From positions 1 to 38,853 of IMG/VR virus record IMGVR_UViG_2563366820_000006: a DNA stretch of 38,853 bases; one strand, written 5' to 3'. The stretch comes from a virus. Lineage: Duplodnaviria > Heunggongvirae > Uroviricota > Caudoviricetes. Both the position numbers and the translations under genes were made by a program. The notes below the pieces were generated by a model, which saw nothing but the letters and a program-made list of their open reading frames with translations, was not told the DNA's origin and did not search any database. How positions within the stretch are numbered: position 1 is the stretch's first letter; each line of letters starts with the position of its first letter. This document shows positions 698-38,853 of this stretch, one piece after another.

Positions 698-1060
698 GGG
701 GCTGATTCTGGATTCGACGGGATTTGCGAAACCCAAGGTGCATGCCGAGGGGCGGTTGGCCTCGTAAAAAGCCGCAAAAAATAGTCGCAAACGACGAAAA
801 CTACGCTTTAGCAGCTTAATAACCTGCTTAGAGCCCTCTCTCCCTAGCCTCCGCTCTTAGGACGGGGATCAAGAGAGGTCAAACCCAAAAGAGATCGCGT
901 GGAAGCCCTGCCTGGGGTTGAAGCGTTAAAACTTAATCAGGCTAGTTTGTTAGTGGCGTGTCCGTCCGCAGCTGGCAAGCGAATGTAAAGACTGACTAAG
1001 CATGTAGTACCGAGGATGTAGGAATTTCGGACGCGGGTTCAACTCCCGCCAGCTCCACCA
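698..1060 (+). ncRNA. ssrA: tmRNA (transfer-messenger RNA, SsrA), 363 nt
   Basis: 5' end GGGGCTGATTCTGGATTCGACGGG; internal tag-peptide reading frame region (GCAAACGACGAAAACTACGCTTTAGCAGCTTAA); 3' tRNA-like end GGTTCAACTCCCGCCAGCTCCACCA. Length and sequence match enterobacterial ssrA. Confidence 0.95.
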
Positions 1061-2780: not shown

Positions 2781-2993
2781 CTATTTATGATGTAATCCGG
2801 ACATCAGTTCATGGACAAGATTATCTCTTTCATTGTGTTGCAACCGTAAATGCATAGCAAAAAGGTGAGCACTATCCTCATTCCTCTTCAAGCCATGCTG
2901 TTCAAGATACCCGAAAAAACGGCTTCTCTTATCCGCTATTTCCTGAGTCTGACGTGCAACATTTACCAAATTTTCTAGCGTTTTTCTTGGCAT
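2781..2993 (-). CDS. Hypothetical small protein downstream of the invertase
   Basis: 70-aa ORF preceded by a near-consensus AGGAGG Shine-Dalgarno 8 nt upstream of ATG; function not recognised. Confidence 0.55.
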   Translation of the reverse strand: MPRKTLENLVNVARQTQEIADKRSRFFGYLEQHGLKRNEDSAHLFAMHLRLQHNERDNLVHELMSGLHHK

Positions 2994-3191
2994 ACTATTT
3001 CCTCCTGAAATTGTTGTAATTCACTAGGATATTCATTTTAATTTGTATCATTTAGTACCAAAACCGCTATCAATTAACAAAGCCATCGTTGTGGTTTACC
3101 TTGCAGCCGTTTTTTGTCATTGACTCTATGTGAAAATAATGAATCATCATGAGATTGGCTCACACGTTCTTGAATTCGACGAGCTGTGTCT

Positions 3192-3746
3192 TTATTTATC
3201 TCCTGCCGGAAACCTCTGATACAAAGTCGATACGCCAACATCATAGATAATCGCAACTTTCTGGCGCGGAACTCCTGATGCAATTAATCGTCCGGCTTGT
3301 GCCCATTGTTCTGGTGTAAGTTTGGGACGACGTCCACCAATTCGTCCCTGTGCGCGAGCAGCTTCCAGTCCAGCTTTTGTTCGTTCAACAATCAGTTCTC
3401 GTTCCATTTCAGCCAGGGCCCCCATCACATGAAAGAAAAAGCGCCCCATTGGGGTACTGGTATCAATTGAATCCGTCAGACTACGAAAGTTGATGCCTCG
3501 TTCGCGCAACTCCTCCACCAGCACGACAAGATGCCGCATACTGCGCCCCAGCCGGTCCAGTTTCCAGACCACCAGCGTGTCACCTGCCGATAATGTCCTG
3601 AGCAGTTTTTTCAGTCCCGGCCTTTCGGACTTTGTACCGCTTATCTTGTCTTCAAAAATCAGCTCGCATCCTGCACAGTTCAGCGCATTACGTTGTAGAT
3701 CTGTGTTCTGGTCATTTGTTGATACGCGTACATAGCCAATAAGCAT
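3192..3746 (-). CDS. Site-specific DNA invertase, serine recombinase (Hin/Gin/Cin/Pin family)
   Basis: 184 aa starting MLIGYVRVSTNDQ (catalytic Ser region), resolvase core and C-terminal HTH; GGGGGA Shine-Dalgarno before the ATG at 3746; adjacent to tail-fibre cassettes. Confidence 0.92.
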   Translation of the reverse strand: MLIGYVRVSTNDQNTDLQRNALNCAGCELIFEDKISGTKSERPGLKKLLRTLSAGDTLVVWKLDRLGRSMRHLVVLVEELRERGINFRSLTDSIDTSTPMGRFFFHVMGALAEMERELIVERTKAGLEAARAQGRIGGRRPKLTPEQWAQAGRLIASGVPRQKVAIIYDVGVSTLYQRFPAGDK

Positions 3747-32276: not shown

Positions 32277-32366
32277 ACAATATGTACCTCCGGTGTACAT
32301 ATTACATGATTGAAATGAACCTTCAAGATACTTGTACCTTAACGGTACAAGGGTTTTAATTTCGTT
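32277..32366. promoter_or_regulatory. Immunity-region operator/promoter segment (OR-like) between divergent cro-like and cI-like genes
   Basis: Inverted repeats built from TGTACC / GGTACA half-sites: TGTACCTCCGGTGTACA and TTGTACCTTAACGGTACAA. Confidence 0.55.
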
Positions 32367-33041
32367 ATGAAAACAATCCATGACATCCGGCGGTCTAACG
32401 CCAGAAAACTGAGAGATGGTGTTGGCGGGAATTCTTCCTTTGCCACTATGATTGATCGCGAGCCAACCCAGACCAGCAGGTTTATGGGAGATGGTGCTAC
32501 TAAAAATATCGGTGACAGCATGGCACGACACATCGAAAAATGTTTCGACCTGCCTGTCGGATGGCTCGATCAAGAACACCAGACAACGAACATCACAAAA
32601 AAACCTGATGTTTCAATCACTAATAAACAAATCACATTAGTCCCTGTCATATCATGGGTACAGGCCGGAGCATGGAAAGAAGTTGGATATTCTGAGGTTG
32701 ATTTGAGCACAGCAGAAACGTATCCCTGCCCTGTACCCTGTGGGGAAATGACTTATATCTTGCGGGTGATAGGTGATTCAATGATTGATGAGTACCGCCC
32801 GGGAGACATGATTTTTGTCGATCCTGAAGTACCTGCCTGCCACGGTGACGACGTTATTGCATTGATGCACGATACAGGTGAAACTACCTTCAAAAGGTTG
32901 ATAGAAGATGGGACACAGCGTTATCTCAAAGCGTTAAACCCAAACTGGCCTGAGCCTTACATTAAGATCAACGGTAATTGCTCTATAATTGGTACAGTGA
33001 TTTTCTCAGGAAAACCAAGAAGATACAAAATCAAAGCCTAA
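32367..33041 (+). CDS. CI-like prophage repressor with S24 (LexA-type) peptidase domain
   Basis: 224 aa; N-terminal HTH-like region; C-terminal S24 features (VIGDSM .. GDMIFVDP .. KRL); no Shine-Dalgarno before the ATG at 32367, possibly leaderless like lambda cI from pRM. Confidence 0.85.
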   Translation: MKTIHDIRRSNARKLRDGVGGNSSFATMIDREPTQTSRFMGDGATKNIGDSMARHIEKCFDLPVGWLDQEHQTTNITKKPDVSITNKQITLVPVISWVQAGAWKEVGYSEVDLSTAETYPCPVPCGEMTYILRVIGDSMIDEYRPGDMIFVDPEVPACHGDDVIALMHDTGETTFKRLIEDGTQRYLKALNPNWPEPYIKINGNCSIIGTVIFSGKPRRYKIKA

Positions 33042-33080: not shown

Positions 33081-33108
33081 TTGACAATGTACCTTTGAGA
33101 TACATAAT
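33081..33108 (+). promoter_or_regulatory. pL-like sigma70 promoter with overlapping operator half-sites
   Basis: TTGACA (33081..33086), 16-nt spacer, CATAAT (33103..33108); TGTACC motifs inside and just after the promoter; faces the xis/int-proximal operon. Confidence 0.55.
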
Positions 33109-33217
33109 GTACCCAAGCGAAACAACGAACAGGCAGGACGCCCACGAAGTAGCCGCCTGGGGCATATGAAGTCCAGGATGATTCGTTAGCAACAAAAAAG
33201 CGCCCTATAGGACGCTT

Positions 33218-33231
33218 CGCTCTTTAACAAT
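33218..33231 (+). promoter_or_regulatory. boxA-like antitermination element (rrn/nut type)
   Basis: CGCTCTTTAACAAT about 110 nt downstream of the pL-like promoter; core GCTCTTTAACAA matches the E. coli rrn boxA core. Confidence 0.5.
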
Positions 33232-33448: not shown

Positions 33449-33928
33449 CTATTTGTCATTATTACACCTTTTTGACCGAGGCAAATCTCCAGCAAACCAT
33501 GCGATAACGCTATGCATGAATGATATTTCTGACTCATCAACACGTCCCAGCGCAATACAGGTCCGTTTGAACGCAGCATCTTGTAAAGATCTCCATGGAT
33601 TACTATCAGCGTCTTGAACCTTTAAAAACCGAGTGCGTAGTTCGTCATCAGAAAGGGAGGAAAACTCAACAATCAACCTTTTATACTGTCGCATCTGTTC
33701 CTTTGATAAGCCAGCTTCCTGCCCAAATTGGTATACCAATTGAAGCACCGACAAAATAGCTACAGATGCGCCAAAAATAAACATATTGCTATATGGCGCA
33801 AAAACAGAAAAGCCCAAGACAATGAGAACAAGAGTTATGCTCTTGTCTATCCGATTTAAAAGGGTGTAATTCATTTTCTCAAGAAAGAAAGAATAATGAA
33901 TATCGAATGCTAGATCGTCTCGAGTCAT
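33449..33928 (-). CDS. SieB-like superinfection exclusion membrane protein (putative)
   Basis: 159 aa; two adjacent transmembrane helices then a soluble C-terminal domain; AT-rich; located in the early-left region next to pL as sieB is in lambdoid phages. Confidence 0.4.
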   Translation of the reverse strand: MTRDDLAFDIHYSFFLEKMNYTLLNRIDKSITLVLIVLGFSVFAPYSNMFIFGASVAILSVLQLVYQFGQEAGLSKEQMRQYKRLIVEFSSLSDDELRTRFLKVQDADSNPWRSLQDAAFKRTCIALGRVDESEISFMHSVIAWFAGDLPRSKRCNNDK

Positions 33929-34308
33929 CTCTATTCCCTTACATTTCAGGTTTCGGCTCAGGGATCGGTGCTGGTCTCTGATTTACCGGAACATGAAATT
34001 TTTCATTGCTATCTACGTACATATTTCCTTCCTACCTGTTGTTGGGATATCCAGATTATACCGAATCCTTGTTGTTGGGGAATAACCAGGTCCACCTCGC
34101 CTGATGTGGCTAAAAGCAGGCACATAACAGCTAAGTATTTTCAACCAGAGAGAATCCTTAGCGTTGTGGTGAATGCGGCTCAGCGCACGCGGGTTAAGGT
34201 TGAGGCTGACAGTCGACCTTCTGTGGATACCCACCCGTCTGGTGTACAACCTTCGCCAGGCACCGGGAGGCACCCGGCACCACAACTTTATGCTGTGTGT
34301 TGTCTTGG

Positions 34309-34355
34309 CGGTACCAGCTTGTACCCTTGCTTCCGGCTGGTACCGTCCTTTTTAC
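34309..34355 (+). terminator. tL-like intrinsic terminator in the early-left transcript
   Basis: 10-bp stem CGGTACCAGC / GCTGGTACCG with 17-nt loop (containing TTGTACCC), followed by TCCTTTTTAC. Confidence 0.4.
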
Positions 34356-34566
34356 AAAACAGAGAAGAGCATCATCGGACGACGGGCTCATAACCCAATC
34401 CATCCGGGCGGCTGCCACCACAGGTGTTCTTCTCTGTTTTGTGGAGAAACTAACCCCCCCTACGGGGGCATTTATGGAAATGTAATTGACTCAATAATCG
34501 CCGGACGGTGAGGGCTTCCTTTTACCCGAATTCAGCGCGGTGCAGCGCATATACGTGGAGAACAAA

Positions 34567-35103
34567 ATGTCATTTATTAAAACTTTTTCCGGGAAGCATT
34601 TTTATTATGACAGGATAAATAAAGACGACATCGTTATTAACGATATCGCGGTTTCCCTTTCAAATATCTGTCGCTTTGCAGGACATCTTTCACACTTCTA
34701 CAGCGTCGCCCAACATGCGGTGCTTTGCAGCCAGCTGGTACCGCAGGAATTTGCTTTTGAAGCGTTAATGCATGATGCAACAGAAGCGTATTGCCAGGAC
34801 ATCCCGGCTCCACTGAAACGCCTTCTTCCTGACTATAAACGGATGGAAGAAAAAATAGACGCCGTAATCCGTGAGAAATACGGGTTACCCCCGGTTATGA
34901 GCACGCCTGTGAAATATGCCGATCTCATCATGCTGGCAACCGAACGCCGCGATCTCGGGCTTGATGATGGCTCTTTCTGGCCTGTACTGGAAGGCATCCC
35001 GGCAACAGAGATGTTCAACGTGATTCCACTGGCACCGGGCCAGGCCTACGGGATGTTTATGGAACGTTTTAACGAGTTATCGGAGTTACGCAAATGCGCA
35101 TGA
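34567..35103 (+). CDS. HD-domain phosphohydrolase (YfbR-like 5'-deoxynucleotidase family)
   Basis: Start chosen at the ATG with GGAG Shine-Dalgarno; H .. HD signature (VAQHAVL .. LMHDATEAY) and DIPAPLKRLL region parallel YfbR. Confidence 0.7.
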   Translation: MSFIKTFSGKHFYYDRINKDDIVINDIAVSLSNICRFAGHLSHFYSVAQHAVLCSQLVPQEFAFEALMHDATEAYCQDIPAPLKRLLPDYKRMEEKIDAVIREKYGLPPVMSTPVKYADLIMLATERRDLGLDDGSFWPVLEGIPATEMFNVIPLAPGQAYGMFMERFNELSELRKCA

Positions 35104-35934: not shown

Positions 35935-37061
35935 CAATCAGGAAACACCGCCAGGGCGAAACGATCAATATAACTTTCACCTACAAAGGCGTTAAATGTC
36001 GTGAGCCTCTTTCCAATCTGGAAGTAACACCAAAGAACATTAAATACGCCGAGCGCACACTCGGCGAAATTCATAATAAGATCGAAAGGGGAACATTCAT
36101 TTATGCGGAATATTTTCCCCGTTCTGCTCGTTTGAAAATTTTTGGTAATGCTGCTGCAGGCAAAACGGTAAAAATGTACCTGGACGAATACCTTGAAATC
36201 TGCGAAACGAGAAAACTTTCACCATCTACGATTGGTGGTTATAAAAAATGCCGTAGTGCGTTAGCCTCACTCCACATTTGCCCTGCAAGTGAATTAACAC
36301 CAGCAATCCTGAAAGCGTGGATTCAAAGCCAGAAAACGACCTTAAAAACAATTCGCAACCAGTTATCTTTCCTGCGGTCAGCACTTGATGAAGCCGTAAC
36401 CGATGGGGTACTTCAAATTAACCCCGTATCGTTGGTAACTGCTTCGCGCTACCAAAGTGATAAGTCAGAAGCAGAAAGCAGCTATGTGGTTGATCCGCTA
36501 TCACCAGCAGAAGTTGATGCATTACTAGCAGCAGCCGGAAACAAACAATGGGAAAATCTGTTCCGGTTCGCCATACATACAGGCCTGCGTAGTTCTGAAT
36601 TATGTGCCCTACGATGGCATGATATCGACTTTGTTGGAAAAACAGCCCATGTTCAGAGCGCAAGTGTTGTCGGAGTTATCAAAGGAACAAAGACAAAAGC
36701 CGGTACCCGTAAAGTTGAACTGACTGAAGAAGCAATGTTGGCGTTGATAAACCAGAAGCCATTTACATTCATGAAGGATGCTACTGTCTTTGAAGATCCA
36801 AAGACCAATAAACCCTGGGCAAGTGCTGATGCAATTAGGAAAAAAGCATGGGTGCCAACATTGCGAAAAGCAGGTATTCGTTACAGAAACCCATATCAAA
36901 CCAGGCATACATTCGCCACCAGACATATCAGCCGGGGAGCAAACCTGTTTTGGCTTGCAGCTCAAATGGGGCATAAAGGGCCTGAGATGCTTTTCAGGCA
37001 CTATGGCTCATATCTGAAGGAATATGATGGACAAACAAGCTTGAAGAAGATAACAATATAA
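35895..37061 (+). CDS. Tyrosine integrase (phage integrase family)
   Basis: 388 aa; N-terminal arm-binding-type domain; C-terminal catalytic region with conserved R .. H-x-x-R .. Y pattern (..TRHTFATRH .. LFRHYGSY). Confidence 0.92.
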   Translation: MGQTKLLKLPRGVTIRKHRQGETINITFTYKGVKCREPLSNLEVTPKNIKYAERTLGEIHNKIERGTFIYAEYFPRSARLKIFGNAAAGKTVKMYLDEYLEICETRKLSPSTIGGYKKCRSALASLHICPASELTPAILKAWIQSQKTTLKTIRNQLSFLRSALDEAVTDGVLQINPVSLVTASRYQSDKSEAESSYVVDPLSPAEVDALLAAAGNKQWENLFRFAIHTGLRSSELCALRWHDIDFVGKTAHVQSASVVGVIKGTKTKAGTRKVELTEEAMLALINQKPFTFMKDATVFEDPKTNKPWASADAIRKKAWVPTLRKAGIRYRNPYQTRHTFATRHISRGANLFWLAAQMGHKGPEMLFRHYGSYLKEYDGQTSLKKITI

Positions 37062-37079
37062 TCCAAGCATGAAACTATT

Positions 37080-37103
37080 GGCCACAATTTGTGGCCATTT
37101 TAC
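37080..37103 (+). terminator. Hairpin / terminator-like element after int
   Basis: Perfect palindrome GGCCACAA-t-TTGTGGCC followed by ATTTTAC. Confidence 0.45.
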
Positions 37104-37119
37104 GGAGCAAGATAGAAAC

Positions 37120-38853
37120 ATGGCAAATCAAATTACCAAACTAAAAAATATAAATGTTGTGAAGTTTCGCGGACTGAAAAATATAAACATCGAGTTTGGT
37201 TCTCGCCTAACTGTTATTTGTGGTAAAAATGGCACATCTAAATCCACAATTCTTGGCATTATCGCCCAAATATTTAGCTTTACAAAGGACTTTACCAAAA
37301 ACCCTGAGACTGATTTAACACAATATAAAACATTAACAAATGGCAGCTTCAAGTCAGCTTTCAGCGAACATTTTAGGCTTTCAGAACAATTTGATGTTCC
37401 TGGTTCAATGGACGTCAAAATTAGTGTCTATGATGGTGCATCGAACAAACATCTTGAAAAACTAACATTAGGTTTATACAGCTACAGTGACAGAGATAAA
37501 TCAAGGCCTGTAGTCAGGGGAAATGATTCAATACCGGAAAAAAACCAAAGTAGAAACGTTACTCATCCTGTTATTTTTTTAAGCTTAGCACGACTTCTTC
37601 CTATTACATTAAGGACTGATTACTCAACACGGGATGTTCAGTACATCAATGAAAATTCTGATGAAATCAGAATGATGAGTAACCAACTCTTACTAAAAAA
37701 CAATGGAAGCTCAGTAACAGCAACAAAAGGTACTATCGATTCAATGGTTGTCCATGGTGACAATTATGATCACCAATCAGTATCTGTTGGTGAAGATAAT
37801 GTTGGACAATTAATCCAAGCAATTTTTTCATTTAAAAGATTGAAGGAAACTTATTCTGATTATCATGGCGGAATATTGTTAATTGATGAAGCCGATGCAG
37901 GTCTTTTCCCTGCTGCACAGTTAGAGCTAATTAATATTCTAACTAAAGCAGCAAAACAATACGATCTGCAAATAATCATGACCTCGCACTCTCCATTAAT
38001 AATAGAGGATATCTATAATCGTTCAAAACAAGATAGTGATAGCTTTAAAACAATATATCTTACAGACACATATGGAGATATTAAAACAAAGAATAATCTT
38101 TCATGGACAGATATCCACGCTGATTTACATGTTGAAACTGTAAAAATTAATGATGACATTTGTCTTCCAAAGGCAAATGTATATTTTGAAGACAAAGAAG
38201 GTTTCGACTTTTTCAAACAATTGATAACAGATCGTAAAATAAATAAAATATTAAATCCATTAGGGAATATAAATATTAGCTGCTCTGCCATGCTTGACTT
38301 AATGGCAAGAAAAATACCAGAATTTACAGCTAAAAGCTTGATCGTCTTAGACGGTGATGTTGTTCACGACAATAGTGCTAATGCAAAAAAAGCCAAAAAA
38401 GAAAAAAACTTATGTTTGCTTCCAAGCACCTTACCTCCAGACCAAATGATTTTTGAGTTTTTATATAATTTACCACCTGATGATGCATATTGGGAAAATA
38501 AAAATAAATTTACAAAAGCTGTTTTTATGAAAACAGCTAAAGACATAATTGCAACGCTAAAGATTGGTAACGCTCCGATTGATTTAAAAATCCTTATAGA
38601 TAATTATAAAAAAGTTAACAAAAACCATGGCGGGATAGTTAGAAAACTGTTTAAAGATTTTGCACATACGACTCAATTTCAGGCCCAAGTAAAAGGGCGA
38701 GTTAAAGATAACCCATATCGATATTGGGTCGAGAAAAATCCTGTGCAATCGGATAGCTTCAAGAATGAACTAATAAAGAGTCTTAAAGTTATTATGACAA
38801 GTGGACATGGTGTCGATTCTGCTACCATCTCATCATATCTGTCAGATAACTAA
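37120..38853 (+). CDS. ABC-type ATPase fused to a C-terminal TOPRIM-like domain (OLD-family-like; P2 Old / PARIS-like defence candidate)
   Basis: Start taken at MANQITKLKNINVVKF (tracked ORF starts at 37069). Walker A GKNGTSKST; Walker B ILLIDEADAGL; H-loop-like MTSHSP; C-terminal acidic motifs YFEDKEG and LIVLDGD about 45 aa apart. AT-rich; ends at the window edge. Confidence 0.75.
   Translation: MANQITKLKNINVVKFRGLKNINIEFGSRLTVICGKNGTSKSTILGIIAQIFSFTKDFTKNPETDLTQYKTLTNGSFKSAFSEHFRLSEQFDVPGSMDVKISVYDGASNKHLEKLTLGLYSYSDRDKSRPVVRGNDSIPEKNQSRNVTHPVIFLSLARLLPITLRTDYSTRDVQYINENSDEIRMMSNQLLLKNNGSSVTATKGTIDSMVVHGDNYDHQSVSVGEDNVGQLIQAIFSFKRLKETYSDYHGGILLIDEADAGLFPAAQLELINILTKAAKQYDLQIIMTSHSPLIIEDIYNRSKQDSDSFKTIYLTDTYGDIKTKNNLSWTDIHADLHVETVKINDDICLPKANVYFEDKEGFDFFKQLITDRKINKILNPLGNINISCSAMLDLMARKIPEFTAKSLIVLDGDVVHDNSANAKKAKKEKNLCLLPSTLPPDQMIFEFLYNLPPDDAYWENKNKFTKAVFMKTAKDIIATLKIGNAPIDLKILIDNYKKVNKNHGGIVRKLFKDFAHTTQFQAQVKGRVKDNPYRYWVEKNPVQSDSFKNELIKSLKVIMTSGHGVDSATISSYLSDN

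Follow-up and report, generated by a model that had tools for sequence, protein, structure and literature searches.

The question pursued here is what occupies the roughly 600 bp in front of yfdR in the early-left region of an e14/SfV-like prophage, the Caudoviricetes record IMGVR_UViG_2563366820_000006, whose complete stretch of 38,853 nucleotides is called the window in the following. An initial annotation had described positions 33950-34540 as GC-rich, apparently non-coding DNA with strong hairpins, and had proposed a decayed gene remnant, a structured regulatory RNA or a recombination scar as possible explanations. The analysis showed that the locus is non-coding (33950-34566) and structured, and that it extends as far as the ATG of yfdR at 34567. 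The G+C content is also elevated, but modestly, with 0.50 to 0.56 in 300-nt segments across 34000-34599 compared with 0.40 to 0.43 just upstream. The locus represents a so far uncurated variant of STnc100, a known family of prophage small RNAs (sRNAs), joined to DicF-like processing signals. With a probability that we set a little above even, it serves the early-left (PL) operon as untranslated leader and contains an sRNA locus whose RNA would be released by termination and RNase processing. The coordinates of all features are collected in Table 1.

This DNA is annotated as a gene. RefSeq proteins are drawn over it as 'protein YmfH' (e14 prophage of Escherichia coli K-12), SfII_35, 'hypothetical protein' or, in the nearest relatives, a 'frameshifted' pseudogene, and the window itself contains an uninterrupted open reading frame (ORF) of 112 amino acids at 34173-34511. 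Intact ORFs in homologous prophages therefore formally exist (e14 ymfH, SfII_35 and many 'hypothetical proteins' of PGAP), but as evidence of a gene they fail. The annotated ORFs do not indicate a gene because they read the same DNA in differing frames, because indels of 1, 1 and 20 nt separate the copies of E. coli from those of Salmonella, because substitutions lack codon periodicity (18/23/18 by codon position, p = 0.64; range over the tests 0.64-0.97) and because the changes preserve RNA helices. YmfH of e14 turned out to be a chimera of three frames of the window, and no conserved reading frame under purifying selection was found for YmfH or the hypothetical proteins. The overlapping open frames noticed at the outset occupy five of the six frames, with both strands involved, as expected of a GC-rich structured RNA, and none of them matched a protein family in Pfam or NCBIfam. 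On the strength of frames, indels, periodicity and both family searches a protein-coding gene was rejected; together with a recent pseudogene of the YmfH/SfII_35 family we assign it a negligible probability, and the decayed gene remnant finds no support either. A search for tRNA-like genes with ARAGORN between 33000 and 35000 found nothing.

To identify the RNA, Rfam was scanned with permissive settings. This covariance-model search, which had been suggested as a check, gave a single significant match, STnc100 (RF02076), at 34133-34356 on the plus strand with 39.6 bits, and the match covers model positions 1-206 of 206 (E = 1e-6 in a search of 1.6 kb and 2.4e-5 over the whole window). The score lies under the curated gathering threshold of 47 bits because helix P2 carries compensated C-G to G-C swaps. 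Sub-threshold matches at the same position were obtained for six of ten related phage loci (SfII, PhiR29_1, e14, ST64B, sal3 and phiES15), and the related copies score 29-42 bits. The minimum free energy (MFE) fold recovers the multi-helix junction of the core. Core copies were gathered from IMG/VR, a phage database and a set with one genome per species, the last contributing at least 120 loci, mostly from Enterobacterales. In their common fold, P1 (GYGGUG/CACCRC) closes the junction, P2 bears a conserved CUNAGCG loop and P3 is variable. P4 differs in sequence in nearly every copy and is always paired, and P5 is near-invariant across the family as CCGGG-AGGCA-CCCGG. This last hairpin had been recognized initially; its corrected position is 34263-34277. 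In all family members P5 also shows a Shine-Dalgarno-like GGGAGG across stem and loop.

The core helices of STnc100 (P1, P2, P4 and P5) are present with compensation, and covariation was found in P1, P2 and P4. An RNAalifold analysis of 63 copies with less than 80% identity revealed a P1 pair that is UA in 37, CG in 20 and UG in 5 copies, as well as P2 positions that occur as CG, GC, UA or AU. In the subtype of the window P2 reads GCG-GC/GC-A-CGC instead of CCCCC/GGGG, and every swap is compensated. Among 12 copies of this subtype, 99.7% of the cells are paired, compared with 33-51% in slid controls, and none of 500 shuffles reached the covariation score. The loop-loop pseudoknot joins a segment right behind P2 (b) to the loop of P4 (b'). 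It was tested sequence by sequence, and MAFFT sets the b' columns one register apart between subtypes. It covaries in five versions, the other four being AAGGCUG/CAGCCUU, UGGUUAU/AUAACCA, UGGUUAA/UUAACCA and UGGUUAG/CUAACCA, and a pairing of at least 6 bp is possible in 82% of 165 distinct copies in comparison with 29% after shuffling of the loops. The fold of the core, its strand and its relationship to STnc100 are thereby established, and of the three explanations offered at first the structured regulatory RNA is the one supported by family match, fold and covariation.

The functional strand is the plus strand, because the P4 helices contain 190 G.U pairs and because U-tracts follow hairpins on this strand only. 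A function of the minus strand, as promoter, 5' untranslated region (UTR) or antisense regulator of the leftward gene at 33449-33928, has to be considered nevertheless, since this gene abuts the element in most relatives, a TATAAT is located on the minus strand at 34060->34055 and the fold energy of this strand is similar (z = -2.55). In phage P1, moreover, predicted upl promoters are located on the opposite strand just right of the core. The abundant G.U pairs would turn into A.C mismatches, however, and phage phiES15 has the element without the leftward gene. We regard such a function as a slender chance at best, and it holds probably only for 33950-34090.

Table 1. Features of the RNA locus and of the early-left region (positions in the window).
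Feature	Position	Strand	Sequence, evidence or remark
LexA-family cI-type repressor gene	32367-33041	+	opposite a cro-like gene
PL-type early-left promoter	33081-33108	+	TTGACA-16-CATAAT; promoter scan 11/12; near-consensus
Operator-like 17-mers overlapping the PL-type promoter	33088-33104, 33108-33124		form TGTACC-N5-(G/A)xTACA
Candidate promoter of leftward gene 33449-33928	34037-34080	-	perfect -10 TATAAT (34060->34055), weak -35; low confidence
Conserved 5' box	34087-34146	+	CAGGUCCACC, hairpin GCCUG (34100-34104)/CAGGC (34117-34121), then ACAUAACAGCUAAGUAUUUUCAACC
Degenerate boxA-like motif	34152-34163	+	GAAUCCUUAGCG; just 5' of P1
STnc100-family core, five helices and pseudoknot	34164-34285	+	Rfam, MFE fold, covariation
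P1	34164-34171/34278-34285	+	
J1/2		+	AAU
P2	34174-34191	+	
P3 base	34190-34194/34233-34237	+	
P4	34237-34244/34254-34261	+	
P5	34263-34267/34273-34277	+	
Loop-loop pseudoknot	b 34196-34202/b' 34247-34253	+	AAGGUUG/CAACCUU
Single-stranded GU-rich linker	34286-34306	+	CUUUAUGCUGUGUGUUGUCUU; conserved, DicF-like
Intrinsic terminator	34307-34353	+	12-bp stem GGCGGUACCAGC/GCUGGUACCGUC, 16-nt loop, U5; sequence, fold, DicF-model similarity
Long hairpin, 25-bp basal stem with small inner branches	34349-34450 (stem to 34447)	+	inverted repeat, z = -5.9, RNAalifold
Small GC hairpin and yfdR 5' UTR	34456-34566	+	Shine-Dalgarno sequence GGAGAA 34556-34561; PGAP start ATG 34567

Downstream of the core, linker and terminator together resemble DicF. 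The linker is kept as UGCUGUGUG(U/A)(U/A)GUCUU in E. coli, Salmonella and Cronobacter copies despite three different terminators and aligns with the 5' part of DicF; it is a candidate for the seed region and for an RNase E entry site. The hairpin with T-tract reported initially is present as well, with a corrected stem of 12 bp including one G.U pair (34307-34318/34336-34347) and T5 at 34349-34353. Linker and terminator have the sequence UUGGCGGUA(U/C)CAGUUUU...CCGCCCUUUUU in common with DicF. The DicF model, with a gathering threshold of 48 bits, assigns 17.1 bits (E = 1.3) to the window and 28.5 bits to the e14 copy, both under this threshold, and 76.7 bits to true DicF. At the terminator position ST64B/sal3 and phiES15 contain unrelated hairpins with U-tracts. 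With three unrelated types of hairpin and U-tract at one site, it is therefore termination that is conserved there.

The strongest element had been overlooked by the initial annotation. An inverted repeat of 18 nt (34354-34371/34425-34442) builds a hairpin at 34350-34450 with -44.1 kcal/mol, which none of 200 shuffles equaled. The fold of core and terminator reaches z = -2.25, and eight terminator-like sites were counted between 32900 and 34800 compared with 1.7 expected; the structure of the locus exceeds chance. The basal stem of the long hairpin takes in the U-tract of the terminator, and its 3' end is the conserved GUGGAGAAAC (34441-34450). RNAalifold on 11 variants revealed compensatory changes (GC/CG/AU, AU/GC and CG/UA) and many G.U pairs. 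Judged from this fold, the hairpin may serve as an RNase III processing site. The motif GUGGAG(A/U)(A/U)A(A/U)C (34441-34455), which in the window pairs with the terminator U-tract, recurs together with a small GC hairpin downstream of the core but without the long hairpin at loci of Pantoea/Buttiauxella (L273, L264, L272 and others).

Terminator and long hairpin together form a 151-bp block that is widespread among E. coli genomes and also present in Stx2, mEp460 and cdtI phages; a match to at least a part of the 641-nt query was found in about 3000 of 5426 complete genomes of E. coli. The segment 34456-34566, which begins with the CCCCC-TAC-GGGGG hairpin of the initial annotation (confirmed at 34456-34468), forms a mosaic module by itself, which corresponds to BLAST block 528-641 of the query and is shared with SfII and K-12 CPS-53. 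Phages of the mEp460/Stx2 type have a different cassette in the slot of the core, with the same UUGUGGU/ACCACAA helix around it. This alternative structured cassette starts with GCGCGGCGGUAAGUAUGGCGGGG, ends with GUGACAACCCC and has no Rfam family. It was found in L011, L006, L019 and about 40 other IMG/VR loci, and it is also the element that precedes dicF in the K-12 prophage Qin (L326, 2700-2880) and the annotated 'dicF-like region' of phage P1 (L202, 2215-2316). Such exchanges raise the possibility that the locus is a mosaic junction or 'boundary sequence' without function of its own, whose blocks persist as linkers for homologous recombination. Near 34037, 34092, 34305 and 34455 there are sharp block edges at which flanking genes have been exchanged, and the alternative cassette occupies the same slot. 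Linkers for recombination need identity, however, and not compensatory changes, while the helices observed here survive double substitutions and the terminators were swapped for non-homologous terminators. Mosaic junctions, as implied by the recombination scar proposed earlier, are present, yet the blocks are conserved functional modules, and we judge this explanation very improbable.

The core was detected in 1841 of the 5426 complete E. coli genomes, K-12 with its e14 prophage included, and among the matches listed it is almost always annotated as hypothetical protein or YmfH. The RNA locus is real, conserved and mis-annotated as a protein in about a third of the complete E. coli genomes. 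In K-12 the gene ymfH (b1142), drawn over core, terminator and hairpin, is apparently a spurious ORF; ymfH of e14 has been grouped with intE, xisE and other e14 genes in the YmfT iModulon. A possible effect of the RNA is the triggering of RcaT, the toxin of retron-Sen2, by overexpressed ymfH that a preprint reports (10.1101/2020.06.22.160242).

K-12 contains a second, unannotated copy of the core in Qin, between the dicF terminator and dicB (L326, NC_000913 1646500-1651500, about 2960-3085). This copy scores 34.4 bits, which is under the Rfam cut-off; compensated changes turn its P5 into CCUGG/CCAGG, and P1 reaches about 20 bp by extension. DicF itself originates from the transcript of the PL-like promoter dicBp, with termination or RNase III at the 3' end and RNase E or RNase III at the 5' end, and the 72-nt form produced by RNase III ends 19 nt beyond the terminated form (PMC5069750). 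Counted on the Qin sequence, the 3' end of the 72-nt DicF falls within the extended P1 of this core copy, so that cleavage of the helix behind dicF offers a structural explanation for the form generated by RNase III. The 25-bp hairpin of the window sits where Qin has this extended helix. A full-length unannotated core is also present in phage P1 (L202, NC_005856) at 3501-3629, corresponding to 70077-70205, in the leader of the C1-controlled ban operon and 27 nt upstream of tciA.

Transcription of the window copy is presumed to start at the PL-type promoter, which follows directly past the cI terminator and is directed rightward. The two operator-like 17-mers over this promoter and three matching ones (TGTACC-N5-GGTACA) at 32283, 32316 and 32333 in the cI/cro intergenic region (span 32283-32349) give a total of five. 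To the right of PL the order is the leftward gene 33449-33928, the RNA locus, yfdR, two small genes, xis and int. The leader has a length of about 1.45 kb without a conserved plus-strand ORF, and the RNA modules lie on the plus strand about 1 kb downstream of the repressor-controlled promoter. A search for a sigma-70 promoter in the 5' box or beside the core found none, and the RNA therefore depends on the PL transcript. A sigma-54-like GGCAC...GC was rejected, as its spacing was wrong by eye.

From this arrangement a sequence of events can be proposed. Inactivation of the LexA-like repressor would allow PL to fire rightward. Some transcripts would end at the terminator and thus release an sRNA of about 34133/34164 to 34353, consisting of the pseudoknotted domain of about 120 nt, the GU-rich linker and the DicF-like terminator. 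Read-through RNA would be cut by RNase III in the 25-bp helix, which would part the sRNA from the yfdR-xis-int mRNA, and RNase E may trim the precursor at the AU-rich start of the linker to a shorter, DicF-sized species of about 60 nt. Both processing substrates, the helix at 34349-34447 and the linker start, are visible in the window. The freed RNA would act in trans on its targets through the linker, probably together with Hfq, and the terminator would also limit the flow into the downstream early-left genes.

A number of observations weigh against a trans-acting sRNA released in this way. To reach the core, the PL transcript has to traverse about 1 kb in which a hairpin (33197-33218) and a convergent gene are located, and the core has no promoter of its own next to it. 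The Rfam score is under the curated cut-off and the similarity to DicF is weak in the window (17 bits). The terminator loop of 16 nt suggests partial termination only. No target was found by ftsZ duplex analysis or by self-complementarity of the window, where the linker had 5 matches compared with 4.05 expected. As a DicF-like target ftsZ found no support, its duplex energies being no better than those of shuffled sequences, in a crude comparison by which genuine DicF did not stand out either. Copies of the same subtype occur without terminator directly 5' of ORFs (dicB in Qin, tciA in phage P1), and these fit a role in cis at least as well.

A cis-acting leader element, either a nut/put-like antitermination site or a riboswitch-like attenuator, could accordingly control the downstream early-left genes at the level of transcription elongation, termination or translation, with the core acting together with the boxA-like motif in front of it and the GU-rich segment behind it, and with the terminated RNA as a by-product. 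The core always points to downstream genes in operon leaders, and it stands directly 5' of dicB (Qin), tciA (phage P1) and kil (phiES15, pPE4). No N-like gene is located between PL and the terminator, the subtype of the window has no promoter of its own, and the ornate fold with invariant nucleotides in junction and loop is nearer to ligand- or protein-binding RNAs than to a typical seed-carrying sRNA. Relatives carry A(A/G)UGCUCUUU at the boxA-like site 4-6 nt upstream of P1, and UGCUCUUU matches the boxA consensus; an alignment of the upstream regions of 40 distinct subtype copies has information peaks at -17 to -9. In the window, however, this motif is degenerate (UCCUUAGCG), the put region of HK022 has no similarity, and no alternative pairing that would link core and terminator was found. 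By inspection, an antiterminator pairing of P4 with the terminator amounts to merely 4-7 bp and is not conserved in ST64B; it was rejected. The canonical tandem arrays, self-contained units with terminators of their own, resemble sRNA genes, and family members are Hfq-bound in vivo. We consider control in cis the chief alternative, though an unlikely one.

The canonical copies of the family bear on this choice from both sides. They have a -10 signal at -14 to -9, with a likely start at P1 therefore, and in 67 of 110 a terminator follows at a distance of at most 120 nt. Three Superficieibacter loci (L236, L248, L283) contain two to three canonical copies in tandem, about 255 nt apart and each with a strong terminator of its own; behind the last copy lies a phage holin gene. 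EcOnc27/sRNA103 and PasD were found experimentally as Hfq-bound RNAs, and PasD was confirmed by northern blot. In Kosakonia, Klebsiella, Raoultella, Citrobacter and Enterobacter (L213, L224, L228, L230, L238, L241, L246, L256, L285 and others) one canonical subtype precedes a KdgM-family porin gene (Pfam E = 8.5e-74) by 20-200 nt on the same strand, and in L213 an upstream TATTCT fits the -10 signal of the family. A terminator-like hairpin lies between core and porin gene in the three loci inspected, in K. michiganensis about 40 nt before the start codon. The resulting order in Klebsiella and related genera, promoter, core, terminator-like hairpin and KdgM gene, suggests a leader or attenuator arrangement outside prophages and favors the cis-acting element.

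Taken further, the core might be primarily a cis device that governs the passage of RNA polymerase or ribosomes by means of a boxA-like 5' motif and the GU-rich 3' segment, and not a trans-acting sRNA at all. We think this decidedly doubtful. If true, the core would serve N-less lambdoid and P1-like phages as an antitermination site of the nut/put kind, or as an attenuator that senses a ligand or protein, ahead of toxic early genes (dicB, kil, tciA and the xis-int operon). In several genera of Enterobacterales it would also precede a KdgM-family porin, and the experimentally detected 'sRNAs' would be its terminated leaders.

The flanks to the left of the core have a different character. In the left 140 bp (33950-34090) we see the probable promoter and 5' UTR of this leftward gene, a reading absent from the initial annotation; the gene product belongs to phrog_6315 (E = 2.8e-51) and has two predicted hydrophobic segments. 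The direct repeat TGTTGTTGGG of the initial annotation indeed occurs twice, at 34037-34046 and 34071-34080; the two copies are 34 bp apart and bracket the minus-strand TATAAT, which by sequence may be a regulated promoter of this gene. The block 34037-34080 is common only to close relatives. The adjoining 5' box, by comparison, has a counterpart with 97% identity across 38 nt in Cronobacter phage phiES15 and also occurs amid unrelated flanks in e14, SfII and sal3; it may be a piece of the sRNA precursor or a processing site.

Some further observations concern the surroundings. The hairpin at 33197-33218 was called as a minus-strand terminator for the leftward accessory gene. Right after it the plus strand carries CGCUCUUUAACAA (33218; region 33197-33230), about 100 nt past the PL start, which matches the rrn boxA consensus at 12 of 13 positions. 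As a conserved nutL this site was rejected: it was seen in the window and its near-identical relative only, and not in other phages of the group. A complete tmRNA gene is present at the left end of the window (698-1060); no repeat of its 3' end (ssrA) was found near the integrase end (37040-37330), so that attachment sites were not identified by this means. In ST64B (L004) the minus strand matches IsrK RNA at 21-97 with 64.3 bits, above the cut-off, near genes of the antirepressor side.

Taken together, the locus ties STnc100/PasD, DicF and the 'dicF-like region' of phage P1, which have so far been treated separately, into a single modular set of leader RNAs of early operons, whose interchangeable cassettes have the same closing helix. 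It escapes Rfam-based annotation because its P2 is a compensated variant, which a re-seeded model would fix, and the pseudoknotted fold with its many natural compensatory variants is well suited for mutational tests of trans versus cis action.

Comparison with known systems places the locus as follows. Like HK022 put and lambda nut, it is a structured RNA situated in the leader of an early operon, here in a lambdoid phage without N, and relatives have an upstream boxA-like motif. The lambda-type combination of boxA, boxB hairpin and N protein is absent from the window, where the boxA-like motif is degenerate and an N-like ORF is lacking. HK022 put has about 70 nt and two stems just downstream of its promoter, whereas the RNA of the window has about 120 nt and five helices at a distance of about 1 kb from PL; homology was rejected, as the HK022 immunity region gives no shared Rfam match and position and architecture differ. 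Lambda PreS (LPR1), an Hfq sRNA of the lytic cycle that ends at the early-left terminator tL2a and is processed further, is likewise carved from a PL operon at an internal terminator, but it comprises about 68-88 nt without a large structured domain and is not similar in sequence or structure. In common with STnc100 (EcOnc27/sRNA103, with PasD1 and PasD2 related) are the five-helix core, GGUGAAU junction, CUNAGCG loop and P5, a full-length covariance-model match, a prophage location and an intrinsic terminator soon after the core (34307-34353). The window differs from it by P2, which is re-paired as UGCG-GC/GC-A-CGCG, and by the score under the cut-off. It also lacks an adjacent -10, having AUCCUU where canonical copies show TAnAnT, and is embedded in an operon leader while canonical copies stand alone. 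Finally, it has an early-left position and a DicF-like 3' end, while canonical copies are described in the stx, Q and lysis region. The architecture corresponds to that of dicBF of Qin: past a cI/DicA-type repressor, a repressor-controlled PL-like promoter is followed by a long leader, by an sRNA whose 3' end is an internal intrinsic terminator (GGCGGUA(U/C)CAG...CCGCC-U5), by a long helix immediately behind it and by the downstream genes, and Qin has the same core between dicF and dicB. The seed-region sequence differs from that of DicF, and the order is reversed, since in the window the core precedes the DicF-like end, while in Qin DicF precedes the core.

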